Positions 1 to 62,886 of a stretch of DNA of 64,000 bases are shown piece by piece. Under the pieces are notes generated by a model. The model ran no database searches, was not told the origin of the DNA, and worked only from the letters and a program-made list of their open reading frames with translations. A program made the translations under genes and the position numbers. The first letter of the stretch is position 1; each line of letters starts with the position of its first letter. This DNA comes from Myxococcota bacterium (GTDB lineage: Bacteria > Myxococcota_A > UBA9160 > SZUA-336). The DNA lies in the NCBI GenBank assembly GCA_035498015.1, contig DATKAO010000090.1, positions 4,827-68,826 on the forward strand. Direction: 5' to 3'.

Positions 1-3000
1 CACGAGCGGAATTTCGTTGGGCCGATCGAAGTACTCCGCGGCAGTCACTGAGGGGCGCAGGAACAGCGCCTGGATCGCGCGCGGCTGGTCCATCATGACT
101 TGCAGCGGGTTGTCCGTCTCATGACCCGCAGGCACGGCGCCGCTCCAGCCGGAGAACAGGTAGCCGAAGTCGGGCACCGGGGTCAGTGTGACCGTGGAGC
201 CTACCGGGTACAACGGCAGGTCGGGGGCGCGCTGCACAGCGCCATGACTCGCGGAGGTAGTGAGCGCCAAGTTCGCAGGCGAGCTCGTGAAGTCCTGGCC
301 GCCAATGTTGGCCGTCACCGGGCCATCGACGCTGCGCGACGCAGGACTCATCAAGTGGCCCGACGCGCTCGGAGTGAGGATGATCGCGGTGGCGTTCGGC
401 GGCACGCCGGTGAGCGAATACACGCCGTTGGTCAGAGTCACCGCGCTGCCCGTGTAGCCGCCGGTCGCAGTCACGACCACACCGCCCAGTCCGGAGCCGT
501 TCTCGAGGATCGTGCCGCTGATCACGAACGAGGTAGGAGTCCCAGCCTCCCAGTCGTCGAGGATGCCGCCAGACTGGAACGTTTCGAAGCCAGGCCGGCC
601 CGAAGTGAGCGTCGTGGAGTTCGGAACCGACAGCACCACGGTGCCGTTGATCTTCGCCGCGACCGTGCCGTTCGAGAGCTCGGCTTCGACGATGTCGCCC
701 GGAGAAATCGTCGAGGGCGACGTGATCAGGTTCCCGCGGTAGGTCCCGCTCGAGTACCAGTAGATGAACAGCGTGCCCTGGTGCCACGAGACGACGAGAG
801 CCTGTCCCGCGCCGCCGAGCAGCACGAGACCGAGCTGGCCGCTCGGGTCCACCACACGGGCGCGCGCGAACTGCGCGCCATCATTGAATGCACCGAGGCC
901 CTGCCAGTAGTAGAGCGCCTCGTCGATACCGCCTGCGACCTGCTGGCCCGCAAGGTTCGACCGGCCGCCCGTGAACGGCTGCACCCAGTTGCCGCCCACC
1001 ACCAGCGGGATCTCGTTGGGCCGGTTGAAGTAGTCAGCGGCAGTCACTCCTGGGCGCACGAAGATGGCGTTGATCTTGCGGTTCTGGTCCATCGTGACTT
1101 GCAGCGGGTTATCCGTCTCGTGACCCACAGGAACGTCGCCGCTCCAGCCTGCGAACGCGTAGCCGTCGTCGGGCACAGCGGTCAGGCTGACCGGCGTTCC
1201 GACGGGGTAGACCGGCGAGTCCGGAGAGCGCTGCACGCTGCCATGAGTCGCGAAGGTGGTGAGCGTCGCGTTCGCCGGAGTGCTCGTGAAGTCCTGGCCC
1301 GTCACGTTCGCGGTCACAGGCCCGTCCACGCTGCGCGAGGCCGGGGTGATGTTGTGCCCCGATGCCGACGGCGTGAGCACGATCGAGGTCGAGTTCAGGG
1401 GGATCCCGGTGAGTGAGTAGCCGCCGTTCGGGGCAGTGACCGCGGTGCCGATGAAGCCGCCGCTCGCGCTCACGAACGCACCGCCCAACCCCGCGCCGCT
1501 CTCGAGGATCGTGCCGCTGATCGCGAACGAGAAGGGCGTGCCGGCCTGCCAGTCGTCGAGGATGCCACCGGATTGGAAGGTCTCGAAGCCCGGGTTGCCA
1601 GCGGTGAGCGTCGTGGTGTTCAGCACCGACAGAACGACGATGCCGTTGACCTTCGCCGCGACCGTCCCGTTCGAGAGCTCCGCCTCGATCACATCGCCGT
1701 TGCTCAGGTTCGAGGGCAGAGTCGCGAGATTCCCGCGGTACGCGCCGGCCGAGTACCAGTAGAGGAAGAGCGTGCCCTGGTGCCACGAAGCGATCAGGCC
1801 CTGGCCGCTCGCGCCGAGCAGCACGACGCCCACCTGGCCGCTCGCGTCGACCACGCGGGCGCGCGCGAACTGCTGGGTGTTGTTGAACAGTCCGGCGCCG
1901 ATCCAGTAGTAGATCGCGTCGTTCGTTGCGCCGACTACGTGCTGGCTGACCAGGTTTGCCGATGCGCCGGCGAACGCCTGCGCCCAGTTGCTGCCCAGCA
2001 CCAGCGGTGTCTCGTTCGGGCGGTTGAAGTCGTCGGACGCGGTCACGCTCGCGGAGCCGAACGCCGCCGTGATGGTCCGGTCCTGGTCCATGGTGACTTG
2101 CAGCGGGTTGTCGCCGCTGTGGCCGGGCGGGACGTCGCCGCTCCAGCCGGCGAACGCATAGTCGGGGTCGGGCACCGGGGTCAGCGTGACCACGGTACCG
2201 AGCGGGTAGGGCGAGAGATCGGGGTTTCGCGTCACGCTGCCGTGAGTCGCGTTGACGGTCAGGACGGCGGTCGTGATCGCGGTGCTCGTGAAGTCGAGTC
2301 CGCCGACGTTGCCAGTCACCGGTCCCGCGACGGTCTGCGTGAGCGGAGTCATGTGGTGACCGGCCAGGGCCGGCGTGATCACGATCGAGGTCGCGTTGCC
2401 GGGCACGCCTGCCATCGACCACACGCCGTTCGGATCGGTCGTGGCGGTTCCCGTGAAGCCGCCCGTCGCAGTGACCTGCACGCCCGCGAGCCCGACGCCG
2501 CCCTCGGTGATCGTGCCACCCAGCGAGAACGAGACGGGCGTGCCCGCCAGCCAGTCGTCCATGCCCGCAACCAGCGTGGGCAGCGACGGATTCAGATAGG
2601 TGATGAAGCCGGGCGTGCCCGAGGCGATCGTGGTGGTGTTCGCGACGCTCGCGACCACCACGCCGTTCACCTTCGCGCGCAGAACGCCGCCGTCGAGCAC
2701 CGCCTCGATCACGTCGCCGTCCGCGAGCGGAGCCACCTGAGACGTCAGCACGCCCTGGTCCTGGCTGTTGGCGTACCAGTAGATGAACACCGACTTGTTC
2801 GCGCCCGGGCCCGGCGGACCCCAGGTCATGTTGATCGAGTGATCGGCGCCCGCGAGCAGGATCAGCCCCGGCTCGCCCGTGCTGTCCACGACCGTCGCGC
2901 GCGCGAACTGACTCGTGTTGCTGAAGCTGCCGGCGCCCTTCCAGTAGTAGATCCCCTCCTGCGAGCCGCCGGTCACGTGATTTCCAGTGAGATTGGAAAA

Positions 3001-3186
3001 GCCGTCGTAGTTGCCCGCGATCGTGCGGCCCCAGTTGCCGGCGGTGGAGAAGGGCGTCTCGTCGGCGCGGTTGAAGTCGTCGGAAGCGACGACGGTCTCG
3101 GTCTGCGCGAAAGCGGGCGCGGCGGCGAAGGCGGCCCAAAGGCATGCGAGCGCAGACAGAGCCAACCTGCGGGGAAAGCAGCTCAT
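1..3186 (-). CDS. Large secreted tandem-repeat surface protein (partial, runs off the window start); repeat unit = DDFNR beta-sandwich + prealbumin/CarboxypepD_reg-like + divergent InlB B-repeat-like domain
   Basis: Manual translation of the minus frame starting at ATG 3186 (MSCFPRRLALSALACLWAAFAAAPAFAQTET, signal peptide) is open to position 1 (1062 codons); absent from the ORF track because no stop lies in the window. (D/E)(D/Y)F(N/D)R motifs at 3073, 2026, 1027 and 28; GWSGD...DNPLQV(T/M)MDQ motif recurs three times. Confidence 0.9.
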   Translation of the reverse strand, partial: MSCFPRRLALSALACLWAAFAAAPAFAQTETVVASDDFNRADETPFSTAGNWGRTIAGNYDGFSNLTGNHVTGGSQEGIYYWKGAGSFSNTSQFARATVVDSTGEPGLILLAGADHSINMTWGPPGPGANKSVFIYWYANSQDQGVLTSQVAPLADGDVIEAVLDGGVLRAKVNGVVVASVANTTTIASGTPGFITYLNPSLPTLVAGMDDWLAGTPVSFSLGGTITEGGVGLAGVQVTATGGFTGTATTDPNGVWSMAGVPGNATSIVITPALAGHHMTPLTQTVAGPVTGNVGGLDFTSTAITTAVLTVNATHGSVTRNPDLSPYPLGTVVTLTPVPDPDYAFAGWSGDVPPGHSGDNPLQVTMDQDRTITAAFGSASVTASDDFNRPNETPLVLGSNWAQAFAGASANLVSQHVVGATNDAIYYWIGAGLFNNTQQFARARVVDASGQVGVVLLGASGQGLIASWHQGTLFLYWYSAGAYRGNLATLPSNLSNGDVIEAELSNGTVAAKVNGIVVLSVLNTTTLTAGNPGFETFQSGGILDDWQAGTPFSFAISGTILESGAGLGGAFVSASGGFIGTAVTAPNGGYSLTGIPLNSTSIVLTPSASGHNITPASRSVDGPVTANVTGQDFTSTPANATLTTFATHGSVQRSPDSPVYPVGTPVSLTAVPDDGYAFAGWSGDVPVGHETDNPLQVTMDQNRKINAIFVRPGVTAADYFNRPNEIPLVVGGNWVQPFTGGRSNLAGQQVAGGIDEALYYWQGLGAFNDGAQFARARVVDPSGQLGLVLLGGAGQALVVSWHQGTLFIYWYSSGTYRGNLITSPSTISPGDIVEAELSNGTVAAKINGTVVLSVPNSTTLTSGRPGFETFQSGGILDDWEAGTPTSFVISGTILENGSGLGGVVVTATGGYTGSAVTLTNGVYSLTGVPPNATAIILTPSASGHLMSPASRSVDGPVTANIGGQDFTSSPANLALTTSASHGAVQRAPDLPLYPVGSTVTLTPVPDFGYLFSGWSGAVPAGHETDNPLQVMMDQPRAIQALFLRPSVTAAEYFDRPNEIPLV

Positions 3187-3406
3187 CGGGGGGATTTCCT
3201 ATCTACGAAGCGAGCTTCGGGGCCGAAATGCACGGGAGTGGCGAGGTCCTGTGAGACTCGGCGCGCCTGCCTACGGACCGCGGAAGCCCGCGTCCACGTG
3301 CCGGGAGGCCGATCATGACACGCCCTGCAGATCACCGCTTGCCCCATTGCGAGCCGGCAGGGCGATACTCAGGGAAGTGGCGCAAATCACAAAAAAGGGG
3401 CACCCG

Positions 3407-62128: not shown

Positions 62129-62145
62129 CGCAAGCGGCGTGCCCG
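62129..62145 (-). promoter_or_regulatory. Sigma-54 (-24/-12) promoter of the P-II gene
   Basis: Minus strand reads GGGCACGCCGCTTGCG (GG-N10-GC with CAC and TT conserved), about 30 nt upstream of the GTG start; RBS GGGGAG. Confidence 0.7.
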
Positions 62146-62265
62146 GTCCGTTGGCGCGGCGCGAGGCGTGGCGCACGGTTTCGCTGGTCGCGCGGGCACC
62201 CTGGCCACGCATCCGCGCTCGAATTGCGTGCAGCCGCTGCCCCGACACCGAGCAGCGTCGGGCGC

Positions 62266-62886
62266 TTACAGGTCGCCCCGGCCCTCGTCGACGGCCCGGT
62301 CGATCTGCGCGGCCAGGGCGTCGCCGCCGCCCAGCTTGGGCGCCATCTGCCGGCCGAACGACACCCGGCCCGGCTCCGGCCAGCTCGCCGGATCCCACAG
62401 ACTCGCGCGCAGGAAGGCGCGCGCGCAGTGGAAGAAGCAGCGTTCGATGCGCACGCGCAGCGCCACGAGCGCCGGCTGCCCGCGCGTTGCCAAGAGCTCC
62501 AGGAGCGCCGGGTCGCGGTACAGCTCGGCGCGGCCACTGACCCGAAGCGTCTCGTCGGTGGCCGGAACCAGGAAGATCAGGGAGACCTGCGGGTTCGCGA
62601 GCACGTTCTGTAGCCCGAACAGGAGCTTGTTGCCCTTGCGGTCCGGCACGAGCAGGGTGCGCTCGTCCTCGACCTTCACGAAGCCCGGCGCGTCGCCTTT
62701 GGGCGAGACTTCGAGCCGGCCGTCGGCGCCGGCGGTGGCGAGCACCAGAAACGGGGCGCGCGCGATGAACGCCTGCATCTGGTCGTCGAGCGCGTCGAAG
62801 ACCTTCTGCCGAGTCACCGGGTGCGGCTCGTCGATCAGCGCGCGCAGCTCGTCGAGGCTCGTGATTCGCATGTCGTAGTTCGCCAT
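62266..62886 (-). CDS. Pyridoxamine 5'-phosphate oxidase-like FMN-binding protein (MSMEG_1061-like)
   Basis: [28 protein letters not shown] and FFHCARA. Confidence 0.9.

Follow-up and report, generated by a model that had tools for sequence, protein, structure and literature searches.

Why should a bacterial genome of 71.1% GC be crowded with a short word that is richer in A and T than its surroundings and lies inside genes in every frame open to it? The question is raised by a 64-kb stretch of DNA from an uncultured soil Myxococcota bacterium (C90:4827-68826 of the assembly designated G000, which comprises 4,524,131 bp in 257 contigs; the whole stretch is hereafter called the window). In the window the quasi-palindrome GAGTSACTC (S, C or G) occurs 11 times, against 0.80 on average and never more than 5 in dinucleotide-preserving shuffles. 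An earlier note on the window had listed these 11 perfect copies and counted by eye 55 GAGTCAC/GTGACTC and 78 GAGTCA/TGACTC; every coordinate was verified, and both tallies were exact. The note likened the word to HIP1 (GCGATCGC), which is known together with alternate highly iterated palindromes (HIPs) from cyanobacteria (Elhai 2015, PMC4390886; Xu, Lawrence & Durand 2018, PMC5861425), and it supposed that the word was either generated by methylation-coupled repair or used as a protein-bound signal for uptake, recombination, or chromosome organisation. It knew of no description of the word, and no account was found in the literature searched for the word and for work on HIP methyltransferases, in which matches to the sequence string were primers and the like.

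Genome-wide, G000 carries 919 copies of GAGTSACTC (470 + 449), 42-fold over an order-0 and 23-fold over an order-3 Markov expectation, and 2,485 copies of the core AGTSACT, an excess of about 14-fold. Because the ordinary coding word CGAGCTCGA likewise reaches 41-fold on the order-0 null, order-0 ratios are inflated by coding structure and were therefore not taken as evidence. A maximal-order Markov null was dropped since the sub-words are also enriched and the signal is masked, and lower-order Markov models and a codon shuffle were used instead. In the shuffle, synonymous codons were exchanged within each of 2,805 open reading frames (ORFs; called with a codon-usage model), so that both protein sequence and codon usage were fixed. 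Over this null, AGTCACT is enriched 9.7-fold, AGTGACT 11.4-fold, GAGTCACTC 15.9-fold, and GAGTGACTC 18.5-fold, and the GAGTCAC family gives the strongest signal among all 5- to 8-mers scored. Each frame without an in-frame TGA is enriched (8-68x), about equally on the coding and template strands. The commonest coding reading is NAG-TCA-CTS (E/Q/K-S-L), which accounts for 839 of 1,728 coding copies. Codons wholly inside the 7-mer family make up 51% of TCA, 33% of ACT, and 32% of AGT, compared with 0.9% of all codons. The word is present on each of the 112 contigs that reach 15 kb, with densities of 0.33-1.6 per kb, so that an island, contamination, and an artefact of assembly are all excluded as its source. 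What is enriched is a DNA word, and the signal does not come from peptides, codons, or mRNA.

These results bear out much of the earlier note. It had named loss of the enrichment under a codon- and dinucleotide-preserving null as grounds for refutation, and under the codon-preserving null about 10-18x persists. Its observations that the copies lie in coding sequence in all frames and on both strands, and that they draw on the AT-richer codons TCA, ACT, and AGT, hold for every permitted frame and for the codon fractions given above. Its concern that the motif might be confined to the window or be an assembly artefact is removed by the 112 contigs and by five other species that carry the word.

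These other species belong to the same genus, which consists of 12 species (G000-G011); all the compared genomes are metagenome-assembled genomes (MAGs) of uncultured Myxococcota. In the motif-rich species G000, G001, G004, G006, G009, and G011, the 9-mer is found 386-919 times and the 11-mer CGAGTSACTCG 186-399 times, compared with 55-77 and 28-36 times in the motif-poor congeners G002, G003, G005, G007, G008, and G010; the reversed control gives 3-20 and 0-2 in all 12 species. Among 225 genomes surveyed, the 213 from the rest of the class contain 0-21 copies of the 11-mer, in most cases no more than a few-fold from the reversed control, and a 9-mer survey of 30 genomes of the class was near background outside the genus. 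A survey of relatives of the kind the earlier note had proposed therefore finds an excess in all 12 congeners and near-background levels in the other 213 genomes. The trait is quantitative, with a low level throughout the genus and more than 10-fold amplification in one clade. In the motif-poor species G010, perfect 9-mers are about 5x enriched and the halo of one-mismatch variants stands at 1.1x; an alternative "dialect" word in the motif-poor congeners was also considered and rejected, as no hyper-abundant word occurs in G010.

A 25-kb alignment of eight genomes gave the tree ((((G000,G011),G001),G009),G005),(G010,(G003,G007)), from which one young amplified clade, ((G000,G011),G001), is apparent with G009 as an intermediate; G004 and G006, both with high counts, were left off the tree. 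G005 is a close motif-poor outgroup with 84.5% identity to G000. In sampled DNA, AGTSACT stands at 0.53 per kb in G011, 0.46 in G001, 0.18 in G009, 0.046 in G010, and 0.020 in G005. When G000 was compared with 0.86 Mb of low-motif DNA of equal GC, the excess grew with the length of the word, from 6x for AGTCA to 8.3x for AGTCAC and 13.7x for AGTCACT.

What exactly is amplified? A sequence logo extends the core by no more than C/G-G to its left and C-(G) to its right, which makes CGAGTSACTCG, and more than two bases beyond the core there is no sequence information, the flanks showing only the codon periodicity of genes. The word is of odd length with an unpaired C or G at its centre, either form being the reverse complement of the other. 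When single mismatches of the 9-mer are tallied, the profile is nearly two-fold symmetric. The centre is restricted to C or G (A/T centres reach just 2-5x), several bases are tolerated at positions 1 and 9, and C is tolerated at position 3, where it gives the tandem form GACTCACTC/GAGTGAGTC (21x). Positions 4 and 6 accept transversions (T>A and A>T, 14x) and not transitions (2.5x). Because neutral decay would consist mostly of A/T>G/C transitions, the halo reflects the specificity of a reader and not erosion. The variants with one mismatch that had been noticed in the window thus form a genome-wide halo around a HIP1-like, DNA-level iterated quasi-palindrome. A general alternation of weak and strong bases was rejected, the WSWSWSW class as a whole not being enriched beyond AGTSACT and its one-off neighbours. 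Two further words are in excess in motif-rich genomes only: GAGATACTC/GAGTATCTC, at 23x on the order-0 null (also in the G011 sample), and GTATCTC, at 5x over the codon null and mostly read as xxG-TAT-CTC. Both lie two mismatches from the word and have an A/T centre, which means that the halo is wider than one mismatch.

The gaps between copies are more regular than chance would give. At a density of about 0.5-0.9 per kb, the coefficient of variation (CV) of the gaps is 0.933, and gaps shorter than 100 bp are 0.43x as frequent as a Poisson model predicts; for 150 comparably abundant control words the medians were 1.03 (CV) and 1.09 (short gaps), and only 1 of the 150 was as low on either measure. 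When GAGTCAC was compared with GTGACTC contig by contig, the balance between them was uncorrelated with GC skew (r=0.05, p=0.57; GC skew is weak in this assembly), and the strand bias of the word tracks gene strand alone, as coding constraints predict. In one place (G000 C239:16094-16126), a terminator-like hairpin, GAGTCACTCGCGCCC-TGA-GGGCGCGAGTGACTC, has a copy of the word as each of its arms, the sole such pair noticed among the close pairs.

How, then, did the copies arise? About 2.5 Mb from seven congeners was compared by means of BLAST alignments projected onto G000. Orthologous sites differ by substitution, not insertion; transposon footprints and insertions were ruled out, as the sites align through substitutions. 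G000 and G011, at 82% identity, have 40% of AGTSACT sites in common. Between these two, third-position A/T identity is 60.5% inside the motif and 49.5% elsewhere, and 35% of motif 7-mers compared with 30% of matched controls are identical in G011. The orthologous sequences in G010 are diverse and often encode another amino acid (GAG-GAG-CTC or GAG-CGG-CTC where G000 has GAG-TCA-CTC), and identity to G010 at first and second codon positions is lower inside the motif. The four A/T positions go back to ancestral bases that need transversions as often as transitions (in the low-motif genome, C 21 and G 16 at motif position 2; G 22 and C 11 at position 4), and therefore no single chemical signature, such as deamination, explains the word; an origin by deamination only was rejected on these grounds. 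Some sites can be followed in steps across the genus. At C92:38876, the series runs from GACCGCG in the low clade through GGTCGCG in G009, GGTGACG in G000, and GGTGACT in G011 to AGTGACT in G001, and at C222:3242, AGCGACT in six genomes has become AGTGACT in G000 and G011. Switches of the central base and clear losses occur too, for example AGTGACT to AGCGACT in G011 at C92:44475.

Rates of creation and loss were estimated for the terminal branches of G000 and G011 from about 180 kb of three-way alignments with our own ORF calls. A 7-mer was taken as ancestral where sister and reference agree, and expectations were drawn from a codon-position- and base-specific substitution matrix, calibrated on 57 pairs of distant decoy words with a matching pattern of composition. 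Matched WSWSWSW control words were partly contaminated by the halo and were replaced by the ratio of observed to expected counts (O/E) relative to the distant decoys. With a low-motif outgroup as the reference, 7 of 47 windows one mismatch away arrived at the word against 0.69 expected (10x, or 9.4x relative to decoys; P=1.3e-5), followed by 3 of 909 at two mismatches (0.33 expected) and 3 of 7,419 at three (0.06 expected). The distant decoys showed an O/E of about 1.0 at one mismatch (49 arrivals vs 45.7 expected in 3,579 windows). Arrival at the one-off words themselves from one mismatch was also elevated (15 vs 4.35 expected in 325 windows, 3.5x). The probability of conversion is 15% at one mismatch, 0.33% at two, and 0.04% at three, and such a steep fall with distance indicates that near-matches are recognised and arbitrary sequence is not overwritten; "writing" of the whole motif irrespective of the prior sequence is ruled out by the same distance dependence.

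Loss behaves differently from creation. Ancestral AGTSACT sites, defined by the sister together with G001 or G009, were retained at 17 of 36 against 20.95 expected (O/E 0.81), and the distant decoys at 55 of 106 against 59.9 expected (O/E 0.92). Protection of existing copies by two-fold or more is excluded, even when about 5 false "ancestral" calls are allowed for. In the motif-poor G005 lineage there were zero arrivals at the word. Arrivals at distant 7-mers of alternating A/T and G/C in that lineage were also few (3 vs 13.4, 4-5x under the site-independent model), while the rich lineages were about as predicted; either the null overestimates A/T-rich words, or the process has a broad component of low specificity.

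Which genes might drive such a process? A beta-class adenine methyltransferase (PF01555, DPPF motif; G000 C92:42630-43652, minus strand), closest to M.RsrI among solved structures, is present in 12 of the 12 species; differences in the length of its ORF were merely upstream shadow frames. It is 62-70% identical to proteins from Dehalococcoidia, Planctomycetota, Thermoleophilia, and Alphaproteobacteria MAGs, and, being conserved across phyla, it is an unlikely explanation of a genus-specific word. It is an orphan and is unusually conserved for a DNA methyltransferase. A second methyltransferase-like protein with an SPPY motif (391 aa; G000 C61:28984-30192), of a family found mainly in MAGs labelled Myxococcota or "Deltaproteobacteria", occurs in 11 of the 12 species, rich and poor, and was undetected in G009. 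Its gene is duplicated in G011 (loci L238 and L240; the paralogue is 74% identical), and it evolves faster than the first (62% vs about 83-86% identity to the low-clade orthologues). A change of target recognition in the SPPY protein was considered and set aside, the alignment showing scattered substitutions with no clade-specific one standing out. These two PF01555-like genes are the sole DNA-methyltransferase-like genes in the motif-rich genomes, and they are common to the motif-poor congeners.

The motif-rich genomes contain no C5 methyltransferase (PF00145) and no PF02384 or PF02086 enzyme, apart from one weak, partial PF02384 match in G006. They also contain no Vsr (PF03852), no MutH (PF02976), and no nickase of the AlwI/N.BstNBI type acting at GAGTC (PF09491, a search in which no positive control was matched). 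The ComEC import channel is found in rich and poor species alike and MutL in both groups, and MutS was found in G000 by signature-motif match only. No special cluster of motifs that might mark a driver gene was seen in G000. The sole Vsr of the genus lies next to a C5 methyltransferase in the motif-poor G010 (C20:59845-61303). The earlier note had asked whether orphan methyltransferases co-occur with the motif, and two were found, neither tracking its abundance across the genus; its link between the word and methylase cores is likewise not upheld, there being no clade-specific methyltransferase and two methyltransferase-like genes common to motif-poor congeners.

What keeps the word abundant? 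A bias in fixation, whether by selection or by a drive of uptake or recombination, ties any boost of gain to a reduction of loss, so that a 10-fold excess needs several-fold slower loss, which is not seen. With creation raised about 10-fold and loss left as it is, an excess of about 10-fold is expected at equilibrium, in agreement with the 10-14x observed for the core. A bias in input fits the data better than a bias in fixation. Judging from these rates, we lean, with confidence a little short of even, to the reading that abundance is kept by continual, similarity-dependent re-creation through sequence-directed biased repair, a ratchet of the type described by Elhai. The even short-range spacing and the density of 0.5-0.9 per kb fit such a ratchet near saturation.

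We infer repair as the cause, and a reader that might work as follows. A factor reading a symmetric site of 9-11 bp would settle near-cognate mismatches in favour of the strand that bears the word, and replication errors that create the word would thereby escape strand-directed MutS/MutL repair. Errors that destroy the word would already be removed by normal repair, and existing copies would gain little extra protection. Sequences one to three mismatches off do turn into the word in excess of the background substitution model, by base changes of all kinds, and copies decay at the ordinary rate. Since there is a low-level signature throughout the genus and no clade-specific gene among the candidates tested, the amplification probably reflects changed activity or expression of a conserved gene and not a gained gene, and for a marking step there are candidates in the two conserved orphan methyltransferase-like genes. 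More specifically, a previously undescribed mismatch-correction system, conserved in the genus, up-regulated in one young clade, and rewriting near-matches to a 9-11-bp site, is a possibility that we regard as doubtful. Of the origin by methylation-coupled repair supposed in the earlier note, generation by repair gains from the boosted creation at near-cognates and the unprotected copies, and the specific link to methylase cores is not supported. The protein-bound signal that it supposed is weakened by loss at the background rate and by the lack of replication-strand polarity, a check the note had suggested and which gave none relative to GC skew.

Several points weigh against re-creation by biased repair. 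The rate estimates are built on few events (7, 3, and 3 gains) and few ancestral sites (36), about 5 of the 36 "ancestral" sites are, on a rough estimate, perhaps parallel gains, and the decoys are imperfect controls, being commoner in the motif-rich genomes themselves. With a motif-rich reference, arrival from one mismatch is just 2.5x (6 vs 2.39 expected in 161 windows); this lower excess is plausible because precursors kept in two rich genomes are likely to be constrained, and arrival from two mismatches with the same kind of reference is 9x (3 vs 0.34 expected in 959 windows). Under-dispersion at short range would equally be seen if the word had an uptake or architectural role in which each added copy brings less benefit. 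The candidates tested included no reader, nuclease, or methyltransferase confined to the amplified clade. To our knowledge, no enzyme repairs DNA towards an A/T-rich 9-mer.

Among the rival explanations, the one that survives best is self-recognition in DNA uptake or recombination, in which fragments bearing the motif are preferentially imported or protected and the word spreads by molecular drive, in the manner of the DNA uptake sequences (DUS) and uptake signal sequences (USS) or of a symmetric Chi; we hold it to be unlikely, though worth taking seriously. About one copy per kb, equal orientations, location in genes in all frames, and graded enrichment of one-off variants are all in keeping with it, as are a spacing more even than random, which is reported for USS, and the presence of ComEC, and HIP1 itself is now proposed to be an uptake signal (PMC13756078; bioRxiv 10.1101/2024.09.10.611283). 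However, a bias strong enough to give 10x should slow loss several-fold, and retention (17 of 36 against 21 expected) is no better than that of the decoys. ComEC is equally present in motif-poor species, the site is symmetric and the known DUS and USS are not, polarity with GC skew is absent, and pairs of motifs acting as terminators are rare, with one example.

It is less probable still that the copies are selected binding sites of a protein with a chromosome-level role, of nucleoid or SMC type, whose density is held by natural selection. A symmetric site of 9-11 bp is typical of a dimeric DNA-binding protein, and the copies, found on every contig, show under-dispersion at short range; Xu et al. 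(2018, PMC5861425) argue likewise for HIP1. Between high-density species, however, conservation of the sites does not exceed background, contrary to HIP1; close relatives function with 13-fold fewer sites; and the creation of sites costs amino-acid changes, as seen from the lower identity to G010 at codon positions 1 and 2 within the motif.

An ancient burst, in which the word was written once in the ancestor of the clade and is now decaying neutrally, would explain the neutral-like loss rate and the intermediate count of G009, but we consider it very improbable, and it is largely refuted by lineage-specific gains. After the split of G000 and G011, both lineages gained the word from a precursor identical in sister and outgroup (AGCGACT>AGTGACT and AGTCGCT>AGTCACT). 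In addition, the halo is not a decay spectrum, since transversions prevail at positions 4 and 6, and motif-poor species show perfect sites without a halo. Finally, a by-product of protein or codon constraint (the E-S-L peptide, or a tRNA or codon-pair effect) or of a single mutation signature such as deamination of methylated CpG has next to no chance of being right, and both versions are refuted: although NAG-TCA-CTS is nearly half of the coding copies and the four cleanest gains are CpG transitions, 9-30x enrichment persists in the other frames and antisense and survives the null that fixes protein sequence and codon usage, many ancestral bases at A/T positions need transversions, and no C5 methyltransferase is present.

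How does the word compare with known systems? It is like HIP1 in being a short symmetric word, at least 15-fold over-represented at about one copy per kb in genes in all frames, with enriched one-off variants and an abundance that varies between related lineages. The ratchet proposed for HIPs predicts biased creation, saturation near one copy per kb, and no need of a function (Elhai 2015, PMC4390886), and our substitution data match these predictions. On the other hand, the word occurs in another phylum, and it is of odd length with a C/G centre, A/T-rich in a 71% GC genome, and not a perfect even palindrome. Abundance of a HIP is reported to go together with a methyltransferase that recognises the word or its core (Elhai 2015, PMC4390886); among the families searched here, no cognate or clade-specific methyltransferase was found, and the two PF01555-like genes are spread over rich and poor species. 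HIP1 copies are reported to be conserved and hence selected, and "continual replenishment" was rejected for them (Xu et al., 2018, PMC5861425), while GAGTSACTC copies are not conserved beyond background and behave as that rejected alternative would have it. HIP1 is also described as periodic at 10-90 kb, a scale above the short-range under-dispersion measured here on contigs whose median length is well under 50 kb.

The similarity to uptake sequences extends to density, coding location, equal use of strands, graded tolerance of mismatches, lineage-specific presence, and even spacing. The DUS of Neisseriaceae and the USS of Pasteurellaceae are asymmetric and are recognised during uptake, and Maughan, Wilson, and Redfield reportedly modelled in 2010 how molecular drive accumulates uptake sequences. 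GAGTSACTC is symmetric; such a drive should protect copies and loss here is at the background rate; and the competence gene content (ComEC) is the same in rich and poor species. Re-creation by biased repair also reminds us of very-short-patch (VSP) repair by Vsr, which corrects only T:G mismatches, at a single position, and works together with Dcm; Bhagwat and McClelland are said to have found in 1992 that it shapes the frequencies of CCWGG-related words in E. coli. Both would be sequence-directed, strand-indifferent correction that turns near-cognates into the cognate and raises creation with function unnecessary, and conversion of near-cognates is elevated here (7/47 vs 0.69; 2.5x with a motif-rich reference). 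Unlike Vsr, every position and substitution type contributes here, the product is A/T-rich, and the motif-rich genomes are without Vsr and C5 methyltransferase.

Chi, the FtsK-orienting polar sequences (KOPS), and the architecture-imparting sequences (AIMS) are likewise oligomers over-represented throughout the core genome, but they are asymmetric, skewed to the leading strand, and enriched only a few-fold, and GAGTSACTC is symmetric and uncorrelated with GC skew. Repetitive extragenic palindromes (REP) and miniature inverted-repeat transposable elements (MITE) have extended flanks in common and lie mostly outside genes, and they differ in that GAGTSACTC is without such flanks and its orthologous sites differ by substitution. 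The word belongs to a loose class of hyper-abundant genome words and departs from each specific family in a property that defines it.

The 11 copies in the window illustrate the mixed frames. Four are read as E-S-L, three as S-D-S, and one as V-T, and three lie outside or at the edge of ORF calls. GAGTGACTC is read as GAG-TCA-CTC (Glu-Ser-Leu) in minus-strand genes at 7582..7590, 11063..11071, and 20421..20429, and GAGTCACTC (CGAGTCACTCG with its flanks) has the same reading in a plus-strand gene at 56246..56254. In plus-strand genes, GAGTGACTC is read as xxG-AGT-GAC-TCg (Ser-Asp-Ser, with the rare codon AGT) at 26126..26134, as AGT-GAC-TCg at 36932..36940, and as AGT-GAC-TCt at 47874..47882, and in a minus-strand gene at 15748..15756 it is read as xGA-GTC-ACT-Cxx (Val-Thr, with the rare codon ACT). 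The remaining three copies are GAGTCACTC flanked by C and G (CGAGTCACTCG), at 6613..6621 on the edge of a called minus-strand ORF, at 39774..39782 outside the conservative ORF calls, and at 43174..43182 outside ORF calls. Around them, the halo (245..62817) consists of 33 AGTSACT, 55 GAGTCAC/GTGACTC, 30 GAGTGAC/GTCACTC, 35 GTGAGTC/GACTCAC, and 78 GAGTCA/TGACTC.

The codon null brought out other features of the G000 ORFs. An unrelated second word is in excess (GCTCTTGC, 9.6x; GCTCTTG, 6.3x; CTCTTGC, 6.6x). The choice of Leu codon depends on context, with GCTCGAG at 3.0x and GCTGGAG/CTGGAG at 0.32x relative to the synonymous shuffle, and GGAGG and CCTCC stand at 0.39x and 0.22x; this pattern looks like avoidance of Shine-Dalgarno-like words within genes.

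The origin of genome words such as HIP1 and DUS/USS has been argued for some 30 years, with selection, uptake drive, and a neutral by-product of biased repair as the contenders. The cyanobacterial cases and those of Neisseria and Haemophilus are ancient, and the process cannot be watched in them, but here the amplification is recent and lies within one genus. The graded series of species (28 to 399 11-mers) and the sites that change in steps make the rates of creation and loss directly measurable. What is new here is the quantitative distribution over the genus, a phylogeny with a close motif-poor outgroup, the asymmetry of creation and loss, the under-dispersion relative to control words, and largely negative results for nine candidate gene families. 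Our first estimates, of biased creation and unprotected copies, are the opposite of the published result for HIP1. The comparison of 12 species offers a practical route to the responsible enzyme. If the mismatch-correction system considered above exists, the motif-poor sisters at about 85% identity could serve to identify its enzyme, and no earlier word of the HIP/USS class would have been traced to biased repair as a neutral by-product. Re-creation by biased repair, if true, would also bear on models of codon usage and composition and on the binning and annotation of MAGs, in which the word would serve as a lineage barcode. A repair-like process could then rewrite some 1% of codons in defiance of codon preference, with amino acids altered throughout the genome.

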